This document shows positions 32,570 through 48,637 of a stretch of 64,000 nucleotides of DNA, one piece after another; position 1 is the first letter of the stretch; each line of letters begins with the position of its first letter. The translations under genes were made by a program, and so were the position numbers. The notes under the pieces were generated by a model. It ran no database searches, was not told the origin of the DNA, and worked only from the letters and a program-made list of their open reading frames with translations. The DNA comes from an uncultured Candidatus Saccharibacteria bacterium (lineage in GTDB: Bacteria > Patescibacteriota > Minisyncoccia > Phycocordibacterales > DSPV01), in the NCBI GenBank assembly GCA_964617735.1, contig CAZTXT010000001.1, positions 532,776 to 596,775 on the forward strand, read 5' to 3'.

Positions 32570-33080
32570 GAACTACATAATAGCATAAGGGCCGTCCCGA
32601 CGTACGTCGGGACGGCCCGTTCTCTGCTTGGATTATCGCCGAGCTCCATGTGCTCAAACTGACCCGGCACCGATTCATTCCCAGAACGCGCTTTGCATGG
32701 AAGGAAACGCGACACTATGATTGCTAAAGAGGTTCGGAGGACGGCGTTGCCGTTTCCGCTTGAAATTGTGCAGGTAAACCTCGTACGGAGAGAGGGATCC
32801 GAACTTGAGTTTCGAATCGAACACGCGCTGTTTCTTTATTCGGTCAAGTCTCGCGTCAATGAGGTCAAGCTCAGTGTAATGCTTTATAAGGAACGTGATC
32901 CTCGATGTGTCTGTATGCCTTTTCGGGGGCATGAATTTCCAGAATTCCTGGAGAACAAAAGCCGATAACGGCTCGAATGAGGGTATACTCATATCTCCCT
33001 CAAGTATACCGGACCGATCGGACTGTGCCAAAAATAACCGGCTTGCTATACTAACGGATGAATACGCTAACGCCAAAACG

Positions 33081-33983
33081 GTGAACCGAAAGAGTTTGTT
33101 CCTATTTATAGCGCTAGGTGTCATACTGATGATCACATACGCGGTGTTCATCGGAGGCGGACGCTTGGTAGTGCTCAATCCGCAGGGAACCATCAGTCTT
33201 GAAGAGCGCAATCTTATCGCAACGGCGGTGCTCTTGATGCTTACCATCGTCATACCCGCTCTGGTGATGACCTTCTATTTCGCGTGGAGATACCGTGCGG
33301 GCAATACGAAAGAGATATATGCGCCGGATTGGTCGGGGAATCCGCGCATCCAGCTTATCTGGTGGGTCGTGCCAGCTGCGGTCATTTCCATCCTCGCTCT
33401 GATCACCTGGCGTGGCACTCACGCCCTCGACCCATACAAACCCATCGCTTCCGATGAAAAGCCACTGACCATACAAGTCGTTGCCCTTCGTTGGAAATGG
33501 CTTTTTATTTACCCTGACCTCAATATCGCGACGGTAAACACTCTTGAGCTTCCCGTCGGCACGCCGCTTAATTTTGAGCTTACGGCTGATGCGCCCATGA
33601 GTTCTTTCTGGATACCAGCGTTGGGCGGCCAGATGTATGCGATGGCAGGTATGACAACGCAGCTTCATCTCTTAGCCAATGCACCGGGAACATTCAAAGG
33701 CTCCAATGCCGAGATCAGTGGCGCTGGATTTTCAAGTATGACGTTTCCGGTAAAGGCGCTGTCGCGCGATGATTTCAATGTTTGGGTCTTGACTGCACGC
33801 GCATCGGGACGAGTGCTCAACGCAGATGAATACGCAACCGTGGCGAAACCGAGCGAGAATGCGCCGATACAGTATTATTCTTCCGTCCAAGACGACCTGT
33901 ATACTATGATAATGATGAGCTATATGATGCCGATGCCGGAGATGACCGGAAGCACAGAACCAACAGCGGATAGCCATTATTGA
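33081..33983 (+). CDS. cyoA: cytochrome bo3 ubiquinol oxidase subunit II
   Basis: Close to the E. coli CyoA pattern (WKWLFIYPD, IPALGGQMYAMAGMTTQLHLLANAPGTF). CuA Cys ligands are absent, as expected for quinol oxidases. GTG start inferred. Confidence 0.8.
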   Translation: MNRKSLFLFIALGVILMITYAVFIGGGRLVVLNPQGTISLEERNLIATAVLLMLTIVIPALVMTFYFAWRYRAGNTKEIYAPDWSGNPRIQLIWWVVPAAVISILALITWRGTHALDPYKPIASDEKPLTIQVVALRWKWLFIYPDLNIATVNTLELPVGTPLNFELTADAPMSSFWIPALGGQMYAMAGMTTQLHLLANAPGTFKGSNAEISGAGFSSMTFPVKALSRDDFNVWVLTARASGRVLNADEYATVAKPSENAPIQYYSSVQDDLYTMIMMSYMMPMPEMTGSTEPTADSHY

Positions 33984-34002
33984 ATATGATGCGTGCACAC
34001 AC

Positions 34003-35979
34003 ATGAACATTCTCTTTGGAAAACTCACTCCCGCGGCGCTTCCCCACGAATGGTTCACGATCGGCGGAACCATCGCGATGGCCGCCACCGGTCTCTGCAT
34101 CGCCTTCCTTTTGACCTATTACAAGCGGTGGAAATGGCTTTGGAGCGAATGGTTGACCTCAACCGACCCTAAGAGGATCGGTATCATGTACATGGTGGTC
34201 GCCTCGGCGATGTTCGTGCGCGGCGCACTCGATGCCGTGATGATCTGGCTCCAACAATCTCTCGCCTCCGGCTCATCGCACGGCTACCTCTCGGCAGACC
34301 ATTTTCAGCAGATATTCACCGCGCACGGCAATATCATGGTCTTCTTCGTTACGATGGGATTCCTCTTCGGATTGATGAACCTGATACTGCCGCTTCAGAT
34401 CGGTGCTCGCGACCTCGCATTCCCCTTCCTTAATTCTTTGAGCTTCTGGCTCTACGTCGCTGGCGCGCTCCTCATCAATATGTTCTTCGTCGCGGGAGGC
34501 GAATTTGCCGCAACGGGGTGGCTCGCGGTTGCTCCGCTCTCGGGCATCCAATACAGCCCGGGGGTCGGGGTGGATTATTGGATATGGAGCCTGCAGGTCT
34601 CCGGACTCGGAACATTGTTAGGCGGCATCAATTTTTTGGTTACTATCATTAAAATGCGGGCGCCCGGCATGACGCTGATGAAAATGCCTCTCTTCACATG
34701 GACATCGCTGTGCAGCATGGTCCTTATCGTCTCGGTCTTCCCTATTCTCGCCGCCACGATCGCGCTCCTCTTCCTCGATCGGTTCTTTGGCTTGCATTTC
34801 TTCACCTCAAGCTTTGGCGGGAACCCCATGATGTACATCAATCTCATCTGGTCATGGGGACATCCGGAAGTCTATATTCTCATCCTTCCTGCGTTCGGAG
34901 TTTTCAGCGAGGTAGTCTCTACGTTCTCGCAGAAACGCCTCTTCGGCTACACCTCGATGGTCGCCGCCGCGATCGGCATCACGCTTCTCTCTCTCCTGGT
35001 CTGGCTGCACCACTTCTTTACGATGGGAGCTGGCGCTGACGTCAACGCGTTCTTCGGCATCATGACCATGTTCATTTCAGTACCTACCGGCCTCCAGGTC
35101 TTCAACTGGATCTGTACGATGTACAGAGGCAAGATCGTCTTTTCGACCCCGATGTACTGGTTCCTCGGTTTCGTCGGCACCTTCACGTTCGGCGGCATGG
35201 CGGGAGTCCTCATGGCAATCCCTCCGGCCGATTTCCAACTGCATAACAGTTTATTCCTCGTCGCCCACTTCCACACGATGATCATCGGAGGCGCGCTCTT
35301 CGGAATATTCGCCGGCTTTACCTATTGGTTCCCCAAAGTCATGGGGTTTCGGCTCAATGAACGCCTCGGTAAATATGCCTTTTGGTGTTGGCTCGTCGGC
35401 TTCTTCGTATCATTCGTCCCCCTCTATATTTTGGGGCTGATGGGCGCGACCCGCCGCCTCGACCACTACGATGCCTCGACAGGCTGGCAACCCCTTTTTA
35501 TGATCGCACTCCTCGGCTCTCTGATCATCACCGTTGGGGTTATCTTCCAGTTGGTCCAAATCATCGTGAGCATCAAACAGCGGAAACTGAATACCGATAC
35601 GACGGGCGATCCATGGAATGGGCGGACGCTTGAATGGTCAACCGCATCCCCCGCACCAGCTTACAATTTTGCATTGATACCACGCGTGGAGAGCCGCGAT
35701 GCATTTTGGGAAATGAAAAAAGGCAAGAAACCGCGACTCTCGGGCGCTGATTTTAAGGACATCCTGATGCCCAAAAACACTCCGATCGGCATTTATATCG
35801 CAGGATTCGTATTTCTCTTCGGCTTCGCGGCCGTCTGGCATATCATTTGGCTTATGATCGCAGGTATCATCGGGGCGATCGCCTGCGCCGTGATCCGCAT
35901 GTTCGACGAGGAAACCGAATACACTATCCCCGCGAGCGAGATCGCGAAAATAGAAGCCCAAAGAACTGTTCATGGATAA
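34003..35979 (+). CDS. cyoB: cytochrome bo3 ubiquinol oxidase subunit I
   Basis: 658 aa heme-copper oxidase subunit I with conserved His ligands (HPEVYILILPAFG, HHFFTMG). Confidence 0.9.
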   Translation: MNILFGKLTPAALPHEWFTIGGTIAMAATGLCIAFLLTYYKRWKWLWSEWLTSTDPKRIGIMYMVVASAMFVRGALDAVMIWLQQSLASGSSHGYLSADHFQQIFTAHGNIMVFFVTMGFLFGLMNLILPLQIGARDLAFPFLNSLSFWLYVAGALLINMFFVAGGEFAATGWLAVAPLSGIQYSPGVGVDYWIWSLQVSGLGTLLGGINFLVTIIKMRAPGMTLMKMPLFTWTSLCSMVLIVSVFPILAATIALLFLDRFFGLHFFTSSFGGNPMMYINLIWSWGHPEVYILILPAFGVFSEVVSTFSQKRLFGYTSMVAAAIGITLLSLLVWLHHFFTMGAGADVNAFFGIMTMFISVPTGLQVFNWICTMYRGKIVFSTPMYWFLGFVGTFTFGGMAGVLMAIPPADFQLHNSLFLVAHFHTMIIGGALFGIFAGFTYWFPKVMGFRLNERLGKYAFWCWLVGFFVSFVPLYILGLMGATRRLDHYDASTGWQPLFMIALLGSLIITVGVIFQLVQIIVSIKQRKLNTDTTGDPWNGRTLEWSTASPAPAYNFALIPRVESRDAFWEMKKGKKPRLSGADFKDILMPKNTPIGIYIAGFVFLFGFAAVWHIIWLMIAGIIGAIACAVIRMFDEETEYTIPASEIAKIEAQRTVHG

Positions 35980-36541
35980 GTACGACCAGGGCGAAAAAAA
36001 TATCTTCGGTTTCTGGGTCTATCTGATGACCGACCTCTTAATGTTCGGCGTGCTGTTCGCGGCGTACGCGGTTCTGCGCACGAATACCTTCGGCGGTCCG
36101 GGAGGTCGTGATCTCTTCAATCTTCCATTTGCGCTCACCGAAACGCTCATACTCCTGACGTCGAGCTTCACCTGCGGCCTCTCTATGCTTGCTGCGCGTG
36201 AGCATCGGATGAGCGGGGTGGTCACGTGGCTTGGCACTACGTTCATTTTGGGAATCACCTTCCTCGTCCTGGAACTGAAAGAATTCTCGCACCTCGTAAG
36301 CGACGGAAACGGACCGCAGCACAGCGCTTTTCTGTCCTCATTCTTCACGCTCGTGGGAACGCACGGCTTGCACATCACCTTCGGCCTCTTGTTCATCACA
36401 ATACTGCTTGTCCAAGCATCACGACAAGGTCTCACCGAAGCGATGGTGAATCGGCTCGCACGCATGAGCATGTTCTGGCATTTTCTCGATGTCGTATGGA
36501 TATTCATATTTACCATCGTTTACCTTTCAGCCTTCGTTTAG
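35972..36541 (+). CDS. cyoC: cytochrome bo3 ubiquinol oxidase subunit III
   Basis: IFGFWVYLMTDLLMFGVLFAAYAVL matches the CyoC N-terminus. Five TM helices. Confidence 0.85.
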   Translation: MDKYDQGEKNIFGFWVYLMTDLLMFGVLFAAYAVLRTNTFGGPGGRDLFNLPFALTETLILLTSSFTCGLSMLAAREHRMSGVVTWLGTTFILGITFLVLELKEFSHLVSDGNGPQHSAFLSSFFTLVGTHGLHITFGLLFITILLVQASRQGLTEAMVNRLARMSMFWHFLDVVWIFIFTIVYLSAFV

Positions 36542-36555
36542 TACCGATCAAGAAC

Positions 36556-36915
36556 ATGGAGACACCGAAAGAAAACCAGAAACTCACGCTATCCTATATC
36601 ATAGGGTTCATCGCTTCCCTTGTGCTGACACTGGTCGCGTATTTTCTGGTCGCTGGTCATCGGTTCGAGGGCGGCGTATTACTATCAGCGATCCTTGGCC
36701 TGGCGATAATCCAGCTTTTGGTGCAGCTGATCTGTTTCCTACATATCGGACACGAGACCGGACCTCGATGGAACCTCGCCGCGCTCATCTCCACCCTCTC
36801 CGTCATTGGTATCGTCGTGGTCGGGTCGCTGTGGATCATGGCGCATCTCAACTACAACATGACACCAACGGAGGTTGATTCGTACGTGATGCACCAGGAA
36901 GGAATGCAGAAATAA
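36556..36915 (+). CDS. cyoD: cytochrome bo3 ubiquinol oxidase subunit IV
   Basis: 119 aa with three TM helices. Sits between cyoC and cyoE. Confidence 0.75.
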   Translation: METPKENQKLTLSYIIGFIASLVLTLVAYFLVAGHRFEGGVLLSAILGLAIIQLLVQLICFLHIGHETGPRWNLAALISTLSVIGIVVVGSLWIMAHLNYNMTPTEVDSYVMHQEGMQK

Positions 36916-36988
36916 AAAAGCTCGCACCAGAGGTACGAGCAGTTAAACATGCATAGAGTGTCCTTTCTCCTAAAGTTGTTTAAGTCTT

Positions 36989-37396
36989 TTAGTCAGGAAT
37001 CTCGACAACGCTTCCGGCGCTTCGAAATGCTCGGCGCAAAAAGCGTTCTCTCTTCTCAGCTGCCACACGGGGCAAGAGGCCACGAACCTGATAGCATAAC
37101 CAAATGAGTTTGGCTCCACCCTCCCTTTTCTTGAAGTGATGAGCCAATTTGATTATATCCTCGATGAGATCCGGAGACTCGCACAGAACTTTCCGTGCCA
37201 AGTCTTTGAACTCACTGATGGATGTGTGTCCTTGAATCAGAAACATCCGTTCTGATTTGTTGCCCTTCCGAGCAAGTTGTCTTGCAACATCTTCGCGCTC
37301 CTTTAACATTCGCGCTTGATCTGCTAACACCTGGCTCTTTTCTTCGTCCGTGATTAACCCGACTTTGTTCAATGCATCAGCTAATGAGGTAGACAT
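36989..37396 (-). CDS. hypothetical protein
   Basis: 135-aa ORF with no recognised motif. Confidence 0.35.
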   Translation of the reverse strand: MSTSLADALNKVGLITDEEKSQVLADQARMLKEREDVARQLARKGNKSERMFLIQGHTSISEFKDLARKVLCESPDLIEDIIKLAHHFKKREGGAKLIWLCYQVRGLLPRVAAEKRERFLRRAFRSAGSVVEIPD

Positions 37397-37525
37397 AAAC
37401 AGTATTTTTGGTGTTCTTTATCATGGATCCGCTAGCAGAAACTAGCTTCTCCAAATCCAATAGCACATTAACACAACATACGATGTATTGTCAACATCTC
37501 TAAAACGGCCTATTTCCTATATAAT

Positions 37526-38389
37526 TTGAGTACCAACGTGTTTAAAAACTATTACGCGCTGACGAAACCCGGCATCATCTACGGCAACCTCATTACCACG
37601 GCGACGGGGTTTTTGCTGGCATCCAAATGGAATGTAAATCTAGCACTACTTATCGCAACACTATCGGGTATCGCTCTCGTGATGGCATCGGGGTGCGTGT
37701 TCAACAACATCATAGACAGAGCCATCGACGCACGAATGGAGCGGACGAAAAGTCGCGGCCTAGTTACGGGAAAGATTTCAAAACAAAATGCGGTTATCTT
37801 CGCTCTCCTCCTTGGAATCGGCGGCCTCTTCATGCTCGGGAAATATACTAATCCCCTCTCGCTTGGCATCACCCTGGTTGGCGTCTTTGTCTATCTTGTT
37901 CTCTACACCATCGGCAAGCGCCGCTCCATGTACGGGCCCCTGATCGGAAGCATCGCGGGTGCAGTCCCGCCCGTGGTCGGCTACACTGCCGTAACCGCTC
38001 ATCTCGAGCTTGCGGCGATGATTCTATTTCTGATGCTCATTCTCTGGCAGATGCCGCATTTCTACGCGATCGCCATCTTCCGTAAGGAAGAATATGCCAT
38101 GGCAGGAATCCCGATACTCCCCATACAAAGAGGCATTCGGAGCACGAAGATCTTGATCGTGCTCTACATAATCGCCTTCGCGATCGTCTCGCTTTCCCTC
38201 ACCCTTTTGGGATCAAGCGGCCGCATCTACTTTTCGGTTGTCCTGGCGCTCAATATCGCATGGCTTTCTCTCTCCCTGTGGGGTTTCCGTGCAGCAGATG
38301 AAAAGCTCTGGGCTCGGAAGATGTTTTTCTTTTCGCTCTTTACCCTCCTTATAACCTTCATAGCGCTCGCGCTCGATGTGACACAATGA
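37526..38389 (+). CDS. cyoE: protoheme IX farnesyltransferase (heme O synthase)
   Basis: UbiA-family motifs (NxxxDxxxD: NNIIDRAIDARMERTKSRG). Confidence 0.85.
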   Translation: MSTNVFKNYYALTKPGIIYGNLITTATGFLLASKWNVNLALLIATLSGIALVMASGCVFNNIIDRAIDARMERTKSRGLVTGKISKQNAVIFALLLGIGGLFMLGKYTNPLSLGITLVGVFVYLVLYTIGKRRSMYGPLIGSIAGAVPPVVGYTAVTAHLELAAMILFLMLILWQMPHFYAIAIFRKEEYAMAGIPILPIQRGIRSTKILIVLYIIAFAIVSLSLTLLGSSGRIYFSVVLALNIAWLSLSLWGFRAADEKLWARKMFFFSLFTLLITFIALALDVTQ

Positions 38390-38862: not shown

Positions 38863-38955
38863 GAAAGTATATCGTCTCGCGGGAAAGGACGCAAAAAAGC
38901 CTGCGGTAGAGCACCGCAGGCTTTTTGATTTTTTACTGGACGGAAGAATGTGGAT

Positions 38956-39693
38956 CTATTTTCCTCCGTGCACGTGGTTAGGCATCTTATGCCGAAAGCG
39001 CATTCTCGATTCTCGGACGAATTGACCGCGCAGGCGTGGCCAATCCTCTTTCATCACCGCCATACAGATAAGACCGTGGCGCTTACCTTCGATGAGGGCA
39101 TGATTCGGAAGGACCGTTTCTACGCGGAACCCGCACGCAAGATTACAGCTATAATTCGCTGTATTAGTCTCAACCATGAAGGAGGAGATCTTATCCAGGG
39201 CGAGCGTCTCGAACCCGAACCGCAGTATGAGCTGTTTCGCCTCTCGTCCATAGCCCCGACCGCGAAAGCCGGGAGCGATGATGGTACGGATCGTCCCTGT
39301 CAGATGAGAAAAACTCACCCGCAGAACGATGACTCCCACCAAAACCCCGTCTCTCCGCACAATCGAGAATACTATATCCTTGGGAGGACCCAGCTGATCC
39401 TGGGTATCCTTTACTAGAGGATCCATCAGCACAGATCTTGACCCTCCCATGACATTGAGCCATTCTCGATCAGGTTGCGGCAGCGTAGAAAAACGCCTTT
39501 GTAACGTCCGAAGCTCGATCGTCGGAACGATGGGGTCTTCGACGTTCATATTTTGGCGTGTTTCTGTATCGTCGAACCACGCGCCAATACGTTCGATCTC
39601 ATTCCCTTCAGGGGGGCGAATCGCCAGTCGTGGCCCTTTGAGGTGCAATAACGGCGTTTTCCGCAAGATCGAACGTTTGTGTATATCTTTCAA
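38956..39693 (-). CDS. GNAT family N-acetyltransferase (RimJ/RimL-like)
   Basis: Acetyl-CoA-binding motif IAPGFRGRGYGREA within a GNAT fold. Confidence 0.65.
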   Translation of the reverse strand: MKDIHKRSILRKTPLLHLKGPRLAIRPPEGNEIERIGAWFDDTETRQNMNVEDPIVPTIELRTLQRRFSTLPQPDREWLNVMGGSRSVLMDPLVKDTQDQLGPPKDIVFSIVRRDGVLVGVIVLRVSFSHLTGTIRTIIAPGFRGRGYGREAKQLILRFGFETLALDKISSFMVETNTANYSCNLACGFRVETVLPNHALIEGKRHGLICMAVMKEDWPRLRGQFVRESRMRFRHKMPNHVHGGK

Positions 39694-39920: not shown

Positions 39921-40964
39921 ATGTCCGAGTCTGATTACAAAGAACTCCTTGACGAAGTGCTCGACGGGATCGTCGTCACTAACAGCGCGACTAAAGTGCT
40001 CTATGCCAATGCTGCGGCTGAACAGATATTGAAAGTGTCGCACGATAAACTCGCGCGTATAAACCTCGTCGACCTGGTGCACCCCAACGACCGTTCCAAA
40101 GTCAAAAAATACGCCGAAATCCTCAAAACGAAAAAGAGCATGGTCACGGTACGCAAGCTCATGCGCGGGGATGGCAAGTATATCTATATCGAACGCCGTA
40201 CCCGTCTTCTCCCCGACGGGTACCAACTCTCTGTATTCCGCGACATAACGGAACAAAAAGAATTCGAGCAACGGCGGGATATGTTCGTCTCGATCGCCAG
40301 TCACGAGCTACGCGACCCGCTTTCAAGCATCAAACTCTACACCAACCTTCTCTTGCAAATCTCACGGCACTGGCCCAATGCGACCGAGGCCGCAGATATA
40401 TTCGCAAAGATACAAAACCAGATCGACCGGCAGGCCATGCTCATCGAAGACCTGTTGAGCCTCTCGCGGATACAAACGGGTAAGCTCGCATTCCGCATGG
40501 ATTGGTTTAATCTCAAAAAACTCGTCGATGAAGCAGTCTTCCATATTCACTCGATAACCAAGCGGGTGTACAACGTCTCCGCCAAGGGGAACCCGCAGAC
40601 CCTGGTATTCGGCGATAAGAACCGTATCTATCAGGTGCTTATCAATCTGCTCTCGAATGCCGCGAAATATTCTTCCCCGCCGGATGAGATCCAGATTGCT
40701 GTGGAGGATCTTAAAGATTCACAGCGGGTGAGCGTGAAAGATAGCGGCGTGGGCATACGGAAAGAAGATATGGGTCGCATCTTCGAGCGGTATTATCGGG
40801 TCAACGAGGAGACGACTCCCGGCTTGGGCATTGGACTATTCCTTTCGCGCGAGATCATCGAACGACATGCCGGGACGCTCAACGTCAAAAGCACGCCGGG
40901 TGCCGGCTCGACATTCACCTTCACGGTCTCAAAGCAAGCTCAAGAGGAAATCTCCGAAAGCTAA
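39921..40964 (+). CDS. PAS-domain sensor histidine kinase (cytoplasmic, orphan)
   Basis: PAS domain, H-box HELRDPL and an HATPase domain. No adjacent response regulator. Confidence 0.8.
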   Translation: MSESDYKELLDEVLDGIVVTNSATKVLYANAAAEQILKVSHDKLARINLVDLVHPNDRSKVKKYAEILKTKKSMVTVRKLMRGDGKYIYIERRTRLLPDGYQLSVFRDITEQKEFEQRRDMFVSIASHELRDPLSSIKLYTNLLLQISRHWPNATEAADIFAKIQNQIDRQAMLIEDLLSLSRIQTGKLAFRMDWFNLKKLVDEAVFHIHSITKRVYNVSAKGNPQTLVFGDKNRIYQVLINLLSNAAKYSSPPDEIQIAVEDLKDSQRVSVKDSGVGIRKEDMGRIFERYYRVNEETTPGLGIGLFLSREIIERHAGTLNVKSTPGAGSTFTFTVSKQAQEEISES

Positions 40965-40977
40965 TTATGTAGCAGGG

Positions 40978-41433
40978 TTATTTCCCGTCGAACGCCTTTT
41001 TGAGCCCTGCGATATCGATCTTCTCCATAGCAAGCATCGCCTGCATGGCGCGATTCGCTTTTTCTCGATCGTCATCGCCGAGCATATCGCCGAGGGCGGC
41101 GGGAATTATCTGCCACGAGAGGCCATATTTATCCTTCAGCCATCCGCACTGCTGCGTCTTCCCTCCCACAGAGAGCTTTTCCCAGAAATAATCTACTTCT
41201 TTTTGGTCCTTGCAATCCACAAAGAGTGATATGGCTTCGGTGAACTTGAATTGAGGACCGCCATTGATGGCCTTGAATTCCTGCCCTTCCAATTCGAACG
41301 AAACGCCCATCGCATTGCCGTCCGGTCCGGGCATGACGGAGAGTATCTTGGAATTCTTAAAAATAGAGGTGTAGAACTTCGCCGCCGCTTCCGCCTCCGT
41401 ATTGAACCAAAGAAATGGAGTTACTTTTTGCAT
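40978..41433 (-). CDS. VOC-family (PhnB/3-demethylubiquinone-9 methyltransferase-like) protein
   Basis: MQKVTPFLWF...SWQIIP pattern of the PhnB-like glyoxalase fold. Confidence 0.6.
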   Translation of the reverse strand: MQKVTPFLWFNTEAEAAAKFYTSIFKNSKILSVMPGPDGNAMGVSFELEGQEFKAINGGPQFKFTEAISLFVDCKDQKEVDYFWEKLSVGGKTQQCGWLKDKYGLSWQIIPAALGDMLGDDDREKANRAMQAMLAMEKIDIAGLKKAFDGK

Positions 41434-41452
41434 AGGATTAGATTATGGTGGA

Positions 41453-41863
41453 TTACATCGCTTTGGGCTGAAGGATGCTCGCTACATTGCCTTCAGTGTC
41501 GATAAAAGTCGCGTACAAGCCTATGCCAGGGATCTCGTCCGGTTCTCCCGGCTTTTGCATGCCGCCGATCACCGTACCACCCGCTACTGCTATCTTTTTC
41601 ATGGCTTTTTGAATGTCACCAACGGCGATAGTGAGCCGCGTCGCCTGATCCGGTTTTGATTTCTCGTAAAAACCGCCATTGATCGCGCCGGGGTTCTTTA
41701 TCATCCTTTGCTCATCGGTCTCGGTTGTGGTCGCCAAAACGTAATTGCCCATTTCCGGTCCCAATTGTTTGGTTTCCCAGCCAAAAACATTTTGATAAAA
41801 ACTTACCATCCGATTTTTGTCCTCGTAGGGCATTTCAAAGTGAACTACTGAATTCATGCTCAT
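41453..41863 (-). CDS. VOC-family glyoxalase/bleomycin-resistance fold protein
   Basis: HFEMPYED...FGW glyoxalase-like N-terminus. Confidence 0.55.
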   Translation of the reverse strand: MSMNSVVHFEMPYEDKNRMVSFYQNVFGWETKQLGPEMGNYVLATTTETDEQRMIKNPGAINGGFYEKSKPDQATRLTIAVGDIQKAMKKIAVAGGTVIGGMQKPGEPDEIPGIGLYATFIDTEGNVASILQPKAM

Positions 41864-41987
41864 GATATTGATTATTTTATATAACTCGATCTTACTTAGA
41901 ATAGCTGAGTTGATCATGAAGAACAACTACGTTTTGCTGAAAGTAAGGAGCCAGTTTTATTTCAAGTGTCCAGAGTTTGCGAGATAT

Positions 41988-42323
41988 TTAAGCTAGTCCA
42001 GACTCAACTTCAGCGTGACAATTCTTACATAAAAGAATACATTTTCTCGCCTCATCTTCTAGACTTTTCCATGAATAGCTCAAGCCCTTAACGCTAAGAG
42101 AAAAGGTCTTTGAACTCCGTTTGGTGTGATGGAAATCAAGCGCTCCGGCATACTTACTATATCCGCAACGCGAACACTTACCCCCGAATAGACTTACCAA
42201 CTTCTCCTTTTTTCTCCTGCGATTCTCAATAACCCAAATTGATGCGCATTTATTGCATCGAATTCCACCATCCGTGCGTCTGAAATGTGGAGTGAGACCG
42301 TGGATTTTGCACACTCTCATCAT
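41988..42323 (-). CDS. small HNH endonuclease
   Basis: Cys4 zinc knuckle plus an HNH core (CSRCG...DFHH...NCHAE). Start could be the ATG at 42323/42320 or the GTG at 42338. Confidence 0.7.
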   Translation of the reverse strand: MMRVCKIHGLTPHFRRTDGGIRCNKCASIWVIENRRRKKEKLVSLFGGKCSRCGYSKYAGALDFHHTKRSSKTFSLSVKGLSYSWKSLEDEARKCILLCKNCHAEVESGLA

Positions 42324-42329
42324 GAATAA

Positions 42330-42350
42330 GTATAACACCTCGTGTTATAC
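42330..42350. promoter_or_regulatory. perfect 9-bp inverted repeat GTATAACAC-CTC-GTGTTATAC at HNH gene start
   Basis: Palindrome located 7 nt upstream of the HNH ATG. A candidate operator or RBS-sequestering hairpin. Confidence 0.4.
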
Positions 42351-42697
42351 CGGCCAACTCTTGTATGAATCAAATTCAGTTACATTAACTATATCAACTG
42401 AGCTCCCCGGATACACCTTACTTCGAACTTTCCATACCGGAAATGCAGATCGCAGCAACAGAAATCTACAACTTCTTTAAAAGCCTTCCCCGCCCCGACA
42501 CCGAGTATTTCTTTTTGCGTCGTAACTGAGCATACTCCCGGCTCAACCTGAGAAGAAGGAGGGTAACCTTGTCGTCGGAGGTAGAAGAAAACTTTCTGCG
42601 GTTAAAAATGCGAGACCTTGACCATATGCATTAGGCATGCTAATGTCCAGCGCGGCTCGGGGAATTCACCCCACCAGTTCAAAAGGAGAACATCCGC

Positions 42698-42982
42698 ATG
42701 AAATTCCAACTGATGGGTCTGGTTCAGTTCAATGAATCGGGCCCGCCCTCTGAACGAATGGAAGTTCGTACTATAAATGAAGTATTCCGGGTTCGTCCTT
42801 CCCCAAAGGCCCAACTCATGGGAGCCCGGAGGGCTCACAAAATCCTGCAGGAGTATCACCGGCGTTTTCATAAAAAACGCAATTACAGTCTCCACGCGCA
42901 GTTCTTCAGACTGAATCTGTACGCCACAGCCAGATCAGAAATGAGGAGCGGCAAGTCGTGCCTAGATTGGTTGAGCTCATAA
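42698..42982 (+). CDS. small basic protein (94 aa), unknown function
   Basis: AAAGGAGAA Shine-Dalgarno 7 nt before the ATG, and an intrinsic terminator right after the stop. Confidence 0.4.
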   Translation: MKFQLMGLVQFNESGPPSERMEVRTINEVFRVRPSPKAQLMGARRAHKILQEYHRRFHKKRNYSLHAQFFRLNLYATARSEMRSGKSCLDWLSS

Positions 42983-42994
42983 GCAACCAACCCA

Positions 42995-43030
42995 AGCTCC
43001 CGGCAATTGCATGCCGGGAGCTTTTTTATT
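42995..43030 (+). terminator. rho-independent terminator
   Basis: AGCTCCCGGCA-ATTGCA-TGCCGGGAGCT followed by TTTTTTATTT. Confidence 0.7.
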
Positions 43031-43167
43031 TCCGACATTGCTAACCCCAGACCAGGGTGTTACTGGCCGATAAACGCCTTTTGGCAAGCTTTGGCTCAAA
43101 CCCACAGCATGAAGCCGAAGAGTGTAAACGCGGTTGCAAAAACTTCTCAATTGCTTACTATCAAACA

Positions 43168-43788
43168 ATGTGGCGAAAATACCAGAAGCTCATTCTGTTT
43201 GGAATTGCTCTCGCGGTTTGCATTTTCTTAGTCATTCGCCTCACCATATTTTTTGCACCTCCAATTCCAGAACCACTCAAGGACACGACCGCGGCCAAAA
43301 TCGATACTGCTGACTGGCAGACCTGTCGTAACGAGAAGGCAGGCTACGAGTTCCGTTACCCGAAAGATTGGTTCGTATACGGAGAAGGAGCACAGTCAAC
43401 CGGAGACTTTAGTCTTATCGCCACGACAACATGTACTGGCTTCTACGTTTGGGTACTCGATCAACCTCCTCCCATATCTGAATTTCCGACTGTAGGCGTT
43501 AACATTGCAGATGAGAGCGAAGAATATGTCCATTCCCTTCACAACGTTCCCGGGGGTCCAGGAGTCACTAACGAGAGTATACTTAAAGCCTACGCTAGAA
43601 CTACCGCCGGAGCTAGAAGCGGCAGTTGGGTGACCATCGACCATAGCCGGTTTCTCGCGTATCCTGCTCGAGGATCAACCGAGTACTCTACGATTCTCGC
43701 CGGTAGGCTCTACTCGATTTTCCCGTTTCCCGAGTTGGACCCGCAGCTATTCAAGGCGATTCTTTCCACTTTCAAGTTCTTGCGATGA
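43168..43788 (+). CDS. membrane-anchored hypothetical protein
   Basis: N-terminal TM helix followed by a roughly 170-aa extracytoplasmic domain. Confidence 0.4.
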   Translation: MWRKYQKLILFGIALAVCIFLVIRLTIFFAPPIPEPLKDTTAAKIDTADWQTCRNEKAGYEFRYPKDWFVYGEGAQSTGDFSLIATTTCTGFYVWVLDQPPPISEFPTVGVNIADESEEYVHSLHNVPGGPGVTNESILKAYARTTAGARSGSWVTIDHSRFLAYPARGSTEYSTILAGRLYSIFPFPELDPQLFKAILSTFKFLR

Positions 43789-43798
43789 TCTCTAATTG

Positions 43799-44053
43799 CT
43801 ATCGGACGCTACGCCAGAGTGGCTGGTTATCTTGGCCGTCCACGGGTGATGGGTCCGCTCCCTGCGGGCCCAGCCACCCATACGGATCGACTCGTTGATT
43901 TCCCTTTTTCACCGTAAAGTGTAGATGATAGTTTACACCCTCAGGACTATTGTAGTAATTCCCACAGTAACCAAGGTGCTGACCTTGCGTAACTGTTGAG
44001 CCATTAGTCAGCCAAAGACGTCCGCAGACCGGATAGTTAGTGTTCTGCCCAGA
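43799..44053 (-). pseudogene. remnant of peptidase M23 C-terminal domain
   Basis: Minus-strand frame reads ...LTNGSTVTQGQHLGYCGNYYNSPEGVNYHLHFTVKKGNQRVDPYGWLG..., matching the M23 GxxVxxGQxIGxxGxTG...HLHFEV...VDP pattern. Has no start codon and begins right after a stop. Confidence 0.5.
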
Positions 44054-44246
44054 CTATCAGCCCAAGCATATCTCCACTTTTTAGTCAGGCTGTAATACTC
44101 TTGACATAGATTATAGGCGTGATATAATCAATAAAGATGGAGGGCATTGTACTAAGTAGAGAAACCTCGGTTGGCAGACAGAACGCCACGTGCATGGTGT
44201 ACGCGGAGTTCTGCACTGCCAATCAGCCAACGAAAGGAATTCAACT

Positions 44247-44687
44247 ATGCTTAGTTCCCAATCATTAGCGCTACTGACCCCGAACTCAAATGACAGTCAG
44301 GGAGAAGTTGCGTGGAAGCGCCTCTTCTTACTCACGCTCCCTCGTTTGTCGCTGGACGAACGGCGTCAATTTGGTGAGCTCGTCTCCTCTGTCTGCAGGG
44401 AAGAAGCCCGCCGTCAGTTGGAGAGTCATGTGAGTTTTTCGCATGTAAGTAAGATTTGCGAACTTCACCATCAGCAGCAACAGGCCTGTTGCCGATTCAT
44501 CAAGGATCTGCTGCGAAACGGTATGCGGCGCCACCCCGAGTTCTTCAGGTCTTACCAAGAAACCTTCCAACGGCTTTGCGCCGAGGTTTACGTTGAGCCG
44601 CCATCCGAACAGGAGATAGGTGACGAAGCTGTTAAGGAATTCGAACGGCTCTGCGGTGGGTCACCGTCGCACACAATGAGGTCATAA
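44247..44687 (+). CDS. hypothetical protein
   Basis: Roughly 146 aa with no motif recognised. Followed by a terminator. Confidence 0.35.
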   Translation: MLSSQSLALLTPNSNDSQGEVAWKRLFLLTLPRLSLDERRQFGELVSSVCREEARRQLESHVSFSHVSKICELHHQQQQACCRFIKDLLRNGMRRHPEFFRSYQETFQRLCAEVYVEPPSEQEIGDEAVKEFERLCGGSPSHTMRS

Positions 44688-44723
44688 GTGCGGGTCGAAG
44701 TTTTTGGGTCAGTCGCGCGACAA

Positions 44724-44750
44724 GGGGTGCCCACGGGCACCCCTTTTTTC
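44724..44750 (+). terminator. rho-independent terminator
   Basis: GGGGTGCC-CACG-GGCACCCC followed by TTTTTT. Confidence 0.7.
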
Positions 44751-44832
44751 TATGTTAGGCAAGTATCGGCCCGTCAAGGCGAGGAAGAGCTTGCAGTAAG
44801 TGGCTGGGTGAAGAATGAATTGGCTCGCCCAG

Positions 44833-45372
44833 CTATAATGTCTTACAGTTTTGCTGTTCACCTCCAAGCGTCGGGGATATCTCATCCAGAAAATTGTACG
44901 AATTGTCGTCAGAAAATCCTAGCGACCTGAGTCGAGCTCGATACCCCTGAATTTCTTTATTTTGATACGTGATACAAAGATAATACGCAAATTGAGCATC
45001 AAAAAGCCCATACGAAACCATGCCAGCCCTGCTCATTGTCCAAATATCAGAGAGGAGGTTGAGGTAGTCATCGATTACATAATCGTCGAACCTTCCTCCA
45101 TTGGCAATTAGTAACGTGCCCCTGTCGTATAGATACTGTTCCTCGATTGCCTTACTTACCTCCCGATACTTAGGATTATCGAAAAACGTGCGATCGTAGT
45201 CATAAATAAACTGACGTTGAGCAACACGTTGATCAATGAGCTTGCCCGCATAAAACGAGAACGCGGTGCTAATAACGCTCGATATCAGAATGGAAATTAA
45301 GATTTCTCGAGCAATAGATGCCCGCTCATGTGACCAATACCTCTCGAACTGCTTCAAAAACATAGTCTCCAA
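44833..45372 (-). CDS. hypothetical membrane protein in AT-rich patch
   Basis: N-terminal TM helix plus a soluble domain. Local base composition is visibly more AT-rich than surrounding genes. Confidence 0.4.
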   Translation of the reverse strand: METMFLKQFERYWSHERASIAREILISILISSVISTAFSFYAGKLIDQRVAQRQFIYDYDRTFFDNPKYREVSKAIEEQYLYDRGTLLIANGGRFDDYVIDDYLNLLSDIWTMSRAGMVSYGLFDAQFAYYLCITYQNKEIQGYRARLRSLGFSDDNSYNFLDEISPTLGGEQQNCKTL

Positions 45373-45506
45373 AAGAGTGCTTACTTTCCAACGCGCTGGA
45401 GAGTTTTCATCCTGCCATCATCACCTTAATGACATAATGTTGCCTATATCTAGCCCTAGTAATCCACAGGGCCTTGCTTTATGGAGGCAATTCGGCTAGA
45501 ATTTAC

Positions 45507-46112
45507 TTACGTTACCTCGCCGGGCTTTGCGCCCGGTTTTTCCGTTTTTGGATCGACCCTTTGTGGAGAGCGCTCGATTTCGGACCTAATCGAATCCAGA
45601 CTGACAAACCATGAAGCTGTCCGGATTTCCCAGGCACAATTGTTCTCGTAAGCCAGAAACTTTATATGCTTCTGCCTCTTTAGTACGTTGTCTTTAGTTC
45701 GAATGAAATCGCTGTCGCCACTCACAAGATAAACGATATCGATATCTTCAAGATCAGCCATTATCTCGTCATGCATCTCAACATCAAAGTTGCACTTATT
45801 TCGGAACCCTAACGGCGATGAGGGGTCCCGGAGCCTCTTTAAATCTTTAGCGGTAACTGTATATCCTATTCTTTTAAAGTACTTTTCCAGAGCTTCACTG
45901 ATGGTTTTGGCAGGTTCATATCGGGGTCTACCCTTGTATATTCGTGCATGGACAATGGTATTTAGCTGAGCGACCCATTTGTAGAGCTTTTTGTAATCGG
46001 TCATCCATCCCGTCGCCTTACCCCGCTTGTACAAATTAGCGTCATCAACATACAGGCCTACTTTAGGCTTTGCTGGAAGTTTTATGGGGAGTGGTTGCTC
46101 CGAAGCGGACAC
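45507..46112 (-). CDS. NYN-domain (LabA/PIN-like) protein
   Basis: VGLYVDDANLY...DIDIVYLVSGDSDF matches the NYN/LabA nuclease-fold signature. Confidence 0.6.
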   Translation of the reverse strand: MSASEQPLPIKLPAKPKVGLYVDDANLYKRGKATGWMTDYKKLYKWVAQLNTIVHARIYKGRPRYEPAKTISEALEKYFKRIGYTVTAKDLKRLRDPSSPLGFRNKCNFDVEMHDEIMADLEDIDIVYLVSGDSDFIRTKDNVLKRQKHIKFLAYENNCAWEIRTASWFVSLDSIRSEIERSPQRVDPKTEKPGAKPGEVT

Positions 46113-46243
46113 ACCTCAAGTTTAACATATAGCTAATAGAGAGCACCAAGGGACAGCTGGCAAGCCTTTGCCTCACCCGGCAAATTGTCCCGTCTTTTGC
46201 GCTTTTGCGCTCCGACTACACTAACCAATTAGGAAAGTGACTT

Positions 46244-46432
46244 ATGAGCCGCAGCGCTTTCCTGTCGGACTCGTCCTCCGGCCGCGGACATGCTACTCCC
46301 TTGTACCCCGAACCAAAGCACGTGCTGGCCGAGCGAATCAGTCAACGGTTACGACTGATTTCCGATCAGCTTACGTCTCTTGAAGAGATCCTCCTCGACA
46401 TCGAGGATATGTTGGATCCCTTCATGAGATAG
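46244..46432 (+). CDS. small acidic hypothetical protein (62 aa)
   Basis: AGGAAAG about 7 nt before the ATG. No motif recognised. Confidence 0.25.
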   Translation: MSRSAFLSDSSSGRGHATPLYPEPKHVLAERISQRLRLISDQLTSLEEILLDIEDMLDPFMR

Positions 46433-46498
46433 TTCTATGGTTCGATTATCCTGCTCCTGGTCAGCAGAACTCGTTGTTACTATGGTATATCCTCTGAA

Positions 46499-46786
46499 CT
46501 CCGGGAGCAGGATTCGAACCTGCGACCAATCGCTTACACGTTATCCATTGTTACCAATGGCGTGGACTATATCACCGCCTTAGCAAATAAGCTTTAGGCG
46601 CCCCGGTATCTAGTCTCTACGGCGCCCCCGATTCGAAAATCAGGGTTCCCACGGTATTGCCCGATCCTACATTGCTTTACAATTGGATTTTGGGTTCCAC
46701 CGTTATCCCGGAGTTTTTCAATCCACCTTTCAGTGGAAAGCTGCAATTCCTTACAGGCGACTGCTCTACCGCTGAGCTATCCCGGA
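46499..46786 (-). tRNA. tRNA-Asn(GUU) interrupted by a group I intron (exon 1 46753-46786, exon 2 46499-46536)
   Basis: Exons join to UCCGGGAUAGCUCAGCGGUAGAGCAGUCGCCUGUUAAGCGAUUGGUCGCAGGUUCGAAUCCUGCUCCCGGAG. Cloverleaf has a 7-bp acceptor stem (U1-A72, G73), a GCUC/GAGC D stem, anticodon loop CUGUUAA, and a T-loop UUCGAAU. CCA is not encoded. Confidence 0.75.
46537..46752 (-). ncRNA. group I self-splicing intron (IC3-like, no ORF) in tRNA anticodon loop
   Basis: Contains the R-like GUAGAGACUAGA and S-like GAUAUAGUCC core elements. GCAG near the 5' end can pair with exon CUGU (U.G at the splice site), and the intron ends in G. Confidence 0.75.
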
Positions 46787-46953
46787 GCTCAATTGATATA
46801 CCTATTTATTTCTCAAGAGCAAGGTTCTTAAGCTATCCCGGAATATCGGCATCAATAGTAGCAGAATCTCGATACCAAGAAAAGCTGACCGAAAACGCAT
46901 TGTAATCCGTTCATTTCATCGAACCATCATCACCCAGCCGGTACATTTTAATT

Positions 46954-47373
46954 ATGCTGCATGAATCTGAAGCAGCTAAAGAAACGATATATGTTATGAA
47001 TGCTCAATCCCCACCAAACCTTGGATCAAACCCTGGATCAGAGGACAATTCTAACGATGCTGATGAAAACATCGAGAGAGGACCAATCCAACTGATTCCC
47101 GCCCAAAAGAAAGTCTATTATGCCGGAAAAGAGATCGCTCTGACGGCACGGGAGGCCAAGATCTTGGGCTTCTTGATGCAGAATGCCAACAAGATCATCG
47201 AACGCAAGCAGATTCTTGATTACGTCTGGGGAAGCAGCTTCAACCCGTTCAGCAACGTCGTGGATGTGCATATAAAGAACCTCCGACACAAACTCAATGA
47301 TGAAAAAGAGCAACCCTTGATCGAAACTATCTGGGGTTCGGGATATCGGCTTAGGATCCCTGATAAACTATAG
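46954..47373 (+). CDS. OmpR/PhoB-type winged-helix DNA-binding protein without receiver domain
   Basis: C-terminal trans_reg_C pattern (LTAREAKILGFLMQNANKIIERKQILDYVW...VVDVHIKNLRHKL...GYRL). The N-terminus is low-complexity and has no receiver domain. Confidence 0.6.
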   Translation: MLHESEAAKETIYVMNAQSPPNLGSNPGSEDNSNDADENIERGPIQLIPAQKKVYYAGKEIALTAREAKILGFLMQNANKIIERKQILDYVWGSSFNPFSNVVDVHIKNLRHKLNDEKEQPLIETIWGSGYRLRIPDKL

Positions 47374-47449
47374 CGCGAATGCGGCTTTTATATCCCCCAC
47401 CCTACTCGCGTTCTTTGCATTGTTATGTTAGTATTGAGCAGTCACTGAA

Positions 47450-48637
47450 TTGGAAGATGCTGCACGTCTGATGGCAAAAATCAAAACAACGTTAGCATAT
47501 ATCGGTCTCGGTCTGTTCATCATCGCCTGCGCACTCTCTTTAGCGCAGTTTAATGCGCGTGCAAGCGACGGAGATGAGCGCATTCTGGTCAAATATAAAG
47601 CAGAGAGCTCTGAAGAACAGATCGCGAAATTCGACAAGAAGTTCGGCTCTGATCTAGAAGAAATAATTCCCAAGCTGGGCGTGCGTATCGTAAGCGTTCC
47701 CGCAAACCTCGAGCGCGAAATAATCGGCAAACTCAAAAAGTATGCGCTCGTCGAATATGCCGAACCGGACGCCTTGGCCCAGGCCCTCTTCGTGCCGAAC
47801 GACCCGTATCTCCCCAATGAATGGGGTCTGGTAAATATCCATGCAACCAATGCATGGGATGTCGCTACCGGCACGTCGACAGTTAAGATCGCTATCCTCG
47901 ATACGGGCATCGATTATGACCACGGTGATCTCAAAAGCAAGGTCGTCTCGAACACCAATTTCACTGCCAGCAAATCGGCTACGGACCGCAACGGGCACGG
48001 CACCCATGTCGCCGGCATCGCTGCAGCGACGACGAACAATGCGCGCGGCGTCGCGAGCATCGGCTACTCATCCTCACTGATGAACGTCAAAGTCCTCTCC
48101 GACAACGGGAGCGGCTACTACTCATGGATCGCCAACGGAATAATTTTCGCCGCCGATAACGGCGCAAAAGTCATCAACATGAGCCTGGGCGGGAGCAGTG
48201 CTTCGCAGACCCTACAAGATGCTATCGACTACGCATGGTCAAAAGGCGTCGTGATCGTCGCTGCAGCTGGCAATAACAACAATAGCACGCCGAGCTACCC
48301 CGCATACTACGCCCACGTCATCGCCGTAGGCGCCACCGACGAAAATGACAGTCGCGCCAGCTTCTCTAACTTCGGCGACTGGGTAGATGTCGCGGCTCCT
48401 GGAGTCAATATCCTCTCCACCTATCCGCATATAGGCCGCACGGACCGTTATGCATATCTAAGTGGCACTTCGATGGCTTCGCCCTTCGTCGCCGGCCTTG
48501 CGGCGCTGGTATGGAATACTGCGTCCGGAACCGACAACCAGACCGTCCGAGACCGAATAGAGAACACTGCCGATACGCTCCCGACTTCCTGGACTACACA
48601 CGGCCTCATCGACGCCGCTAAAGCCGTTACGTTTTAA
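47450..48637 (+). CDS. secreted subtilisin-like serine protease (peptidase S8) with propeptide
   Basis: Signal peptide, an I9-like propeptide, and the catalytic triad motifs DTGID, HGTHVAG and GTSMASP. Confidence 0.85.
   Translation: MEDAARLMAKIKTTLAYIGLGLFIIACALSLAQFNARASDGDERILVKYKAESSEEQIAKFDKKFGSDLEEIIPKLGVRIVSVPANLEREIIGKLKKYALVEYAEPDALAQALFVPNDPYLPNEWGLVNIHATNAWDVATGTSTVKIAILDTGIDYDHGDLKSKVVSNTNFTASKSATDRNGHGTHVAGIAAATTNNARGVASIGYSSSLMNVKVLSDNGSGYYSWIANGIIFAADNGAKVINMSLGGSSASQTLQDAIDYAWSKGVVIVAAAGNNNNSTPSYPAYYAHVIAVGATDENDSRASFSNFGDWVDVAAPGVNILSTYPHIGRTDRYAYLSGTSMASPFVAGLAALVWNTASGTDNQTVRDRIENTADTLPTSWTTHGLIDAAKAVTF

Follow-up and report, generated by a model that had tools for sequence, protein, structure and literature searches.

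Intron-split tRNA genes in bacteria have been mapped on a large scale, with 5,292 genes reported and the number of known cases rising from 4 to 21 (Williams 2020, bioRxiv 10.1101/2020.01.27.920355). According to that survey, the classical tRNA introns (those of Ile(CAU) in Azoarcus and of Leu, Ile2, Arg and fMet) are listed as IC3 in a group I intron database. In Patescibacteria, nearly all introns of tRNA-Asn genes have been classed as IA (PMC13011429); that Asn.4Ug genes are called as Thr.2Ug had, according to Nakagawa et al. (PMC13011429), already been reported in Williams 2020. The latter study (Nakagawa et al. 2026, mSystems) tabulated the miscalls made by ARAGORN and tFind, which consist of Thr(UGU) with a 33/34 site and, in one instance, Tyr(GUA) with a 36/37 site. 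Precise excision between positions 35 and 36 has been demonstrated in vitro, by sequencing and with an omega G-to-C control, a mutant that stalls as the intermediate of intron and 3' exon, for the tRNA-Asn of GCA_016700035.1 and the tRNA-Asp of GCA_001029755.1 (PMC13011429). The compact subtype to which the intron described below belongs already appears in the supplementary table of the same article. The intron class, the 35/36 site and the annotation ambiguity are thus published, with experimental proof on relatives, and the present case is an ordinary one.

The locus lies in a window of 64,000 nucleotides (the whole stretch of DNA that was analysed), in which the reverse complement of positions 46499-46786 forms a 288-nt split tRNA gene, with exactly the coordinates and exons assigned to it in an earlier sequence-only reading. 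The gene is very probably a tRNA-Asn(GUU) interrupted by a compact, ORF-less 216-nt group I intron at the 35/36 site. All of its parts lie on the minus strand, from U1 at 46786 to the discriminator G73 at 46499. The 34-nt 5' exon (46753..46786; tRNA positions 1-35; TCCGGGATAGCTCAGCGGTAGAGCAGTCGCCTGT, also given as UCCGGGAUAGCUCAGCGGUAGAGCAGUCGCCUGU) ends with C32, U33, G34 and U35 (46756-46753), which constitute the 5' strand of P1. The intron (46537..46752; AAGGAATTGCAG...GGATAACGTG), identified by the Rfam family RF00028, by the ARAGORN call i(36,216) and by family covariation, has omega G (46537) as its last base, directly before UAAGCG. The 38-nt 3' exon (46499..46536; tRNA positions 36-73) reads TAAGCGATTGGTCGCAGGTTCGAATCCTGCTCCCGGAG, also given as UAAGCGAUUGGUCGCAGGUUCGAAUCCUGCUCCCGGAG, and its first base, U36 (46536), decides between asparagine and aspartate or tyrosine. 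The tRNA body is characterized by a U1-A72 pair, G73 and a 5-nt variable loop, UGGUC, and no ORF was found inside the window intron. CCA is absent after G73 (46496-46498, minus strand), where the next letters are UUCAGAGG; among relatives, it is encoded in some and not in others.

The likeness to the published Patescibacteria tRNA-Asn(GUU) introns ('Asn.4Ug') encompasses the host tRNA, the 35/36 site, the CUGU/GCAG P1 with its U35.G wobble, the omega G before U36 and the GTG end, the last of which gives rise to the Thr(UGU) ambiguity. Over the aligned positions, the window intron shares 70% identity with the published tRNA-Asn intron of GCA_030583765.1 (Paceibacteria). On the other hand, in most of the published Asn introns of Patescibacteria, the assayed one of GCA_016700035.1 among them, P7 and P3' are separated by an extra P7.1/P7.2-like hairpin region, whereas the window intron and that of locus L015 lack such an insert and continue from GAGACUA straight into GAUACCGGGG; 16 other short Asn introns carry 30-60 nt at this position. 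Judged from the sequence layout, the P7.1/P7.2 elements that serve as a criterion for IA are absent from the window intron, which also differs from the published Asn introns in having its own P5 extension.

The compact passage from P7 to P3' is shared with the 196-nt tRNA-Asp(GUC) intron of GCA_001029755.1, which is self-splicing in vitro and also matches the window intron in its CUGU/GCAG P1, its 35/36 site and its similar size. This intron differs in its host, a tRNA-Asp whose 3' exon starts with C, and is 55% identical over the aligned positions; identity to the two assayed introns is only 51-55%. The 205-nt intron of the Azoarcus pre-tRNA-Ile(CAU) is likewise a small anticodon-loop intron without P7.1/P7.2. 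It has the core strings GUAGAGACUAGA, CACCUAAGG...UAUGGUGAAG and AUAGUCC in common with the window intron (sequence from PMC8890501), as well as GNRA loops on P2 and P9, but it follows position 36 of the CAU anticodon and uses the guide GUG. Membership of IC3 is not claimed for the window intron, as the Azoarcus alignment is convincing in the 3' core only, with 42% overall identity.

The predicted secondary structure of the intron is established through covariation in an alignment, A1, of 59 diverse relatives taken from the matches listed, with the window sequence included as one row. The structure evaluated consists of the anticodon stem, P1-P6, P8 and P9, with P7 entered as a pseudoknot. Paired cells make up 95.5% in this structure, compared with 38-46% when the partners are slid by 1-3 columns, and changes on both sides were observed in 29 of the 53 pairs. 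The covariation score of 0.458 compares with at most 0.124 for the slid structures and was reached in none of 500 shuffles. RNAalifold predicted P1 from A1 unprompted; it also predicted P2, P3, P4, P5, P6, P8 and P9, all of which are supported by covariation. P7 pairs in every sequence of A1 and, being invariant, provides no covariation information either way. The modelled intron contains the conserved P3-P9 core, including the P3/P7 pseudoknot.

Within P1, the C32-G, U33-A, G34-C and U35.G pairs are invariant in A1 (59/59). In the window, this helix (CUGU|AAGGAAUU GCAG) is formed with the internal guide sequence GCAG (46741..46744), which pairs with C32-U35 and whose first G (46744) wobbles with U35 at the 5' splice site; it is extended beyond the wobble by a pair between the first intron base, A+1 (46752), and U (46745). 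The corresponding pair in the family, between the first intron base and the base before the guide, is never broken among the 59 sequences and occurs as AU in 28, CG in 18, GC in 11 and GU in 2. Because the U35.G pair is invariant and its neighbour covaries, U35 can be identified as the group I 5' splice-site wobble.

The remaining helices can be placed in the window by reference to the family alignment. P2 (helix 3; 46722..46737) is the hairpin UCCACU-GAAA-GGUGGA with a GNRA loop, in which all six pairs show changes on both sides. P3 consists of CUCCGG (helix 4; 46708..46713), which shows a compensatory C-G to U-A change relative to L015, and CCGGGG (46601..46606). The presumed guanosine-binding helix, P7, consists of GACUA (46611..46615), located within the invariant stretch GUAGAGACUAGAUACC, and UAGUC (46565..46569), located within the invariant J8/7-P7 stretch GAUAUAGUCC. 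P8 (helix 9) is a hairpin at 46576..46600, and P9 (helix 10; 46545..46560) is the hairpin CCAUUG-GUAA-CAAUGG, whose six pairs all covary and which is followed by AUAACGUG, ending in omega G.

Guanosine-dependent catalysis by the window intron is inferred from the splicing of published relatives in vitro. In the precursor, C32-U33-G34-U35 would pair with the guide GCAG to form P1, with the U35.G wobble marking the 5' splice site. Exogenous guanosine bound at P7 would then cleave after U35, and the terminal G of ...AACGUG would take over the P7 site for exon ligation, with the anticodon stem presumably helping to hold the exons together. The ligated anticodon loop would read CUGUUAA, position 36 being supplied by the first base of the 3' exon. 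Pairing of the 3' exon with the guide (P10) appears by eye to be weak at best.

Relatives were collected in two scans. Contigs from one genome per species were searched with the last 18 nt of the 5' exon, which yielded at least 119 loci, nearly all in Patescibacteria MAGs, and metagenomes were searched with the P7-to-P3' junction of the window intron, GTAGAGACTAGATACCGRRGC, which yielded at least 120. Re-parsing at the conserved CTGT gave at least 133 introns; these counts are samples and not censuses. At least 77 loci of the 18-nt contig scan carry an uninterrupted tRNA-Asn (...CTGT-TAAGCGA), and at least 37 others contain an intron of 199-624 nt after CTGT, with G directly before TAAGCGA. 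The closest relative among the matches listed is L015, from a Saccharibacteria MAG, whose exons are identical, whose intron is 199 nt long and which shows 80% blastn identity across the gene.

The hosts among the matches listed are of three kinds. In 88, the first base of the 3' exon is U and the body has U1-A72, G73 and a 5-nt loop (Asn); in 39, it is C, with G1-C72, G73 (36 scored) and a 5-nt loop (Asp); in 6, it is A, with G1-C72, A73 and a 15-nt arm (Tyr). All three share CUGU, and within the intron family the anticodons are told apart only by the first base of the 3' exon. As the hosts are Asn, Asp and Tyr, the family may be described as residing after U35 of CUGU-loop tRNAs, and U1-A72, G73, the 5-nt loop and U36 assign the window gene to the Asn class. 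Two arguments of the sequence-only reading are borne out by this comparison. The U1-A72 pair with G73, which it had regarded as the tRNA-Asn identity set, occurs in all 88 relatives with U36 among the matches listed and in neither the Asp (G1-C72/G73) nor the Tyr (G1-C72/A73) hosts, and the 5-nt variable loop, which it had considered incompatible with a class II tRNA-Tyr, contrasts with the 15-nt arm found, together with G1-C72 and A73, in all six genuine Tyr hosts among the matches listed. Hosts of tRNA-His, whose anticodon is likewise GUN, number 0 among the 133 matches listed. Their absence could be a sampling effect of the motif-biased scans, or it might reflect a clash of omega G with G36 at the 3' splice site.

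It is conceivable that the intron has lost the ability to splice, so that the gene is dead or poorly expressed and another gene supplies tRNA-Asn. A scan of the flanks of the gene revealed neither a sigma-70-like promoter nor an intrinsic terminator, the lack of a promoter-like site being in line with such a reading, as are the sub-threshold Rfam score, the lineage-specific extension of P5 and the scope of the tRNA gene survey, which spans the window only. Nevertheless, every column that is invariant in the 59-row alignment (of which the window itself is one row) is preserved, and where P3 and P8 differ from those of L015, the changes compensate each other. The exons match functional-looking intronless genes exactly, and in published Patescibacteria genomes the intron-bearing gene is often the sole tRNA-Asn copy (PMC13011429). 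Loss of function is therefore considered improbable, and the reading of the locus as a functional tRNA-Asn(GUU) gene is preferred.

Comparison with relatives also establishes, at the level of sequence, the exon/intron boundaries and the assignment of the tRNA body to Asn. As had been noted from the sequence alone, the junctions share A and U residues, so that several exon readings are indeed possible: exon 1 may end in ...CUGU, CUGUA or CUGUAA, with exon 2 starting as UAAGCG, AAGCG or AGCG. All eight ways of removing 216 nt that leave a 7-nt anticodon loop were enumerated. The combination of U at -1 with G at omega arises in only two of these, namely 35/36 (CUGUUAA, Asn GUU) and 33/34 (CUUGUAA, Thr UGU). 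In the three GUA (Tyr) phases, position -1 is A or G and omega is U or A, so that both sites fail. The sequence-only reading had argued that only the GUU parse provides the U and G demanded by group I chemistry; this argument is valid against the GUA phases, but the parse is not unique, since the 33/34 phase qualifies too. The rival that needs to be excluded is therefore Thr and not Tyr, which that reading had taken as the main competitor, overlooking the 33/34 Thr(UGU) parse that is the usual software miscall (PMC13011429). Its preference for GUU over GUA is itself upheld by the splice chemistry, the variable loop, the identity set and the match of the 35/36 ligation product to the intronless tRNA-Asn of L044 (Patescibacteria), with which it is identical at 72 of 72 positions.

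Splicing two bases upstream at both junctions (CU|GUAAGG...AACG|UGUAAGCG) would produce a tRNA-Thr(UGU), with the required U at -1 and G at omega in place, and this 33/34 solution is a frequent choice of ARAGORN and tFind for relatives (also PMC13011429 Table 1). Its U33, however, is engaged in an invariant Watson-Crick pair with A in P1, the wobble being at U35. The 5' exon ends in CTGT in 133 of 133 homologous introns among the matches listed, and CTGT is invariant in the 59 aligned relatives (59/59) taken from them. The 35/36 parse gives a terminal G in all 133 (three mis-split genes having been corrected), whereas the base two upstream, which would have to act as omega G for Thr, is A in 38 of the 133, including 27 of the 88 Asn bodies among the matches listed. 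Furthermore, the body, with U1-A72 and G73, is identical to an intronless tRNA-Asn; among the tRNA-Thr genes of the fetched loci, identity to the window exons reaches 74% at most, the top one has G1-C72, and the best-matching ones all begin with G. Two relatives also gave 35/36 excision in vitro (PMC13011429). The P1 wobble register, the relatives without the alternative omega G and the identity of the tRNA body exclude tRNA-Thr(UGU), leaving it a very slight probability, and the 35/36 parse as tRNA-Asn(GUU) is retained.

A tRNA-Tyr(GUA) spliced at 36/37 or 37/38, which would resemble the canonical site of protein-spliced introns in archaea and eukaryotes, is permitted by the letters (CUGUAAA loop) and was once called by ARAGORN for a published relative (PMC13011429), but its probability is negligible and it is excluded for practical purposes. 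In these phases, position -1 is A and omega is U or A, and covariation supports the insert as a group I ribozyme and not a bulge-helix-bulge substrate. The window gene (5-nt loop) lacks the class II long arm and the G1-C72/A73 of the six real tRNA-Tyr hosts among the matches listed, those hosts are themselves split at 35/36 with A first in the 3' exon, and in relatives that share the tRNA body the intron begins with G, C or T.

The variability of this base also bears on the 36/37 site in general. Among the 88 Asn bodies in the matches listed, the first intron base is G in 35, A in 29, C in 23 and T in 1; a 36/37 parse would thus endow one tRNA body with four anticodons, whereas the 35/36 parse yields GUU throughout. 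The sequence-only reading had called for direct confirmation of the junction, as the choice alters the amino acid decoded; the matter is less open than was assumed, since 35/36 excision has been sequenced in vitro for relatives (PMC13011429).

The window as a whole represents an ordinary bacterial chromosome, with genes for MreB, MurA, HisRS, an RpoD-type sigma factor, a cytochrome oxidase operon and a subtilase. The MreB, MurA, HisRS and RpoD-type proteins show 40-79% amino acid identity to Patescibacteria loci, in a comparison set that is almost entirely Patescibacteria, and these identities together with that of the tRNA point to an assignment to this group. The cytochrome oxidase operon (32895-38389, plus strand) includes COX1 at 34003-35979, followed on the identical Logan contig L001 by COX3, COX4_pro and UbiA; such oxidases are uncommon in Patescibacteria, though not without example. 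The sole exact protein match obtained was to a Logan contig of 5.7 kb, and 4.1 kb of the window recur without differences in Logan run SRR12313480. Around the tRNA gene (40000-48000), the GC content falls to 0.48, compared with 0.52-0.54 elsewhere in the window, and this region contains several ORFs without a Pfam match and an ORF with an NYN domain (45507-46112). A genomic island or att repeat at the tRNA, prompted by the dip at 40-48 kb, was considered and rejected, as a search of the window that allowed 3 mismatches recovered no further copy of the tRNA 3' end. A phage origin is not indicated, the P7-P3' motif being absent from the viral contigs scanned.

The introns of two family members, L154 (173 nt) and L132 (177 nt), retain all core strings and are markedly shorter than the 205-nt Azoarcus intron; if active, they would rank with the smallest self-splicing group I ribozymes that occur in nature. 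At the other extreme, the tRNA-Asn introns of L016, L011, L146, L049 and L094 are 515-624 nt long and carry an ORF of 106-131 aa inside the P1 loop, which starts approximately 25-40 nt past the CTGT 5' splice site, downstream of a TGnTATAAT-like box. Its product, with a CxxC...HH...CANCH motif and weak Pfam HNH matches (E=1.5e-4 and 1.6e-3), is presumably a homing endonuclease. The window-type P7-P3' junction motif was also observed in a 639-nt intron of L136, which splits a tRNA-Leu(UAA) at the classical 34/35 site (CTT|...AAG|AAAATCC). In L234 (approximately 12.4-13.0 kb), a tRNA-Thr(GGU) split at 36/37 by 201 nt is followed, approximately 20 nt downstream, by a tRNA-Tyr(GUA) split at 35/36 by 198 nt. 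It may tentatively be proposed, with some doubt, that the compact lineage without P7.1/P7.2, marked by GUAGAGACUAGAUACCGRRGC, is a single and very abundant environmental family that uses the guide GCAG to occupy every C32-U33-G34-U35 tRNA; much of this idea is probably already implicit in the published surveys.

Detection of the window gene depends strongly on the tool and its settings. ARAGORN in its default mode reported zero tRNAs across the whole window; with introns allowed, it reported one gene, a tRNA-Asn(gtt) with an intron of 216 nt. No match was found in the window at the Rfam gathering thresholds. When the insert was searched (701-nt search), Intron_gpI (RF00028) scored 36.3 bits (E=1.4e-7), below its gathering score of 50; the Rfam seed contains no bacterial sequences, and matches of 18-20 bits have been regarded as usable (Williams 2020, bioRxiv 10.1101/2020.01.27.920355). 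The intron was not recovered by a whole-window Rfam search at E<=0.05, in which the sole match was Thr_leader (38890-38973, minus strand; 32 bits against a gathering score of 55, E=0.046), probably by chance. In the metagenome loci L121-L240, ARAGORN with introns allowed mislabelled many members of the window's intron family: tRNA-Asn bodies were called Thr(tgt) with a 33/34 site, class II tRNA-Tyr bodies were called Ser(tga), and His or Arg was called occasionally. Re-parsing at the invariant CTGT returned all mislabelled loci to Asn, Asp or Tyr.

Because both default ARAGORN and the Rfam gathering threshold miss the gene, automatic annotation of the source genome would seem to lack tRNA-Asn, and relatives may be mislabelled as Thr, Tyr, Ser or His by tools that do allow for introns. 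The significance of the finding is practical and not conceptual, in that such omissions and miscalls affect estimates of genome completeness and the inference of codon reassignment in Patescibacteria-like genomes.
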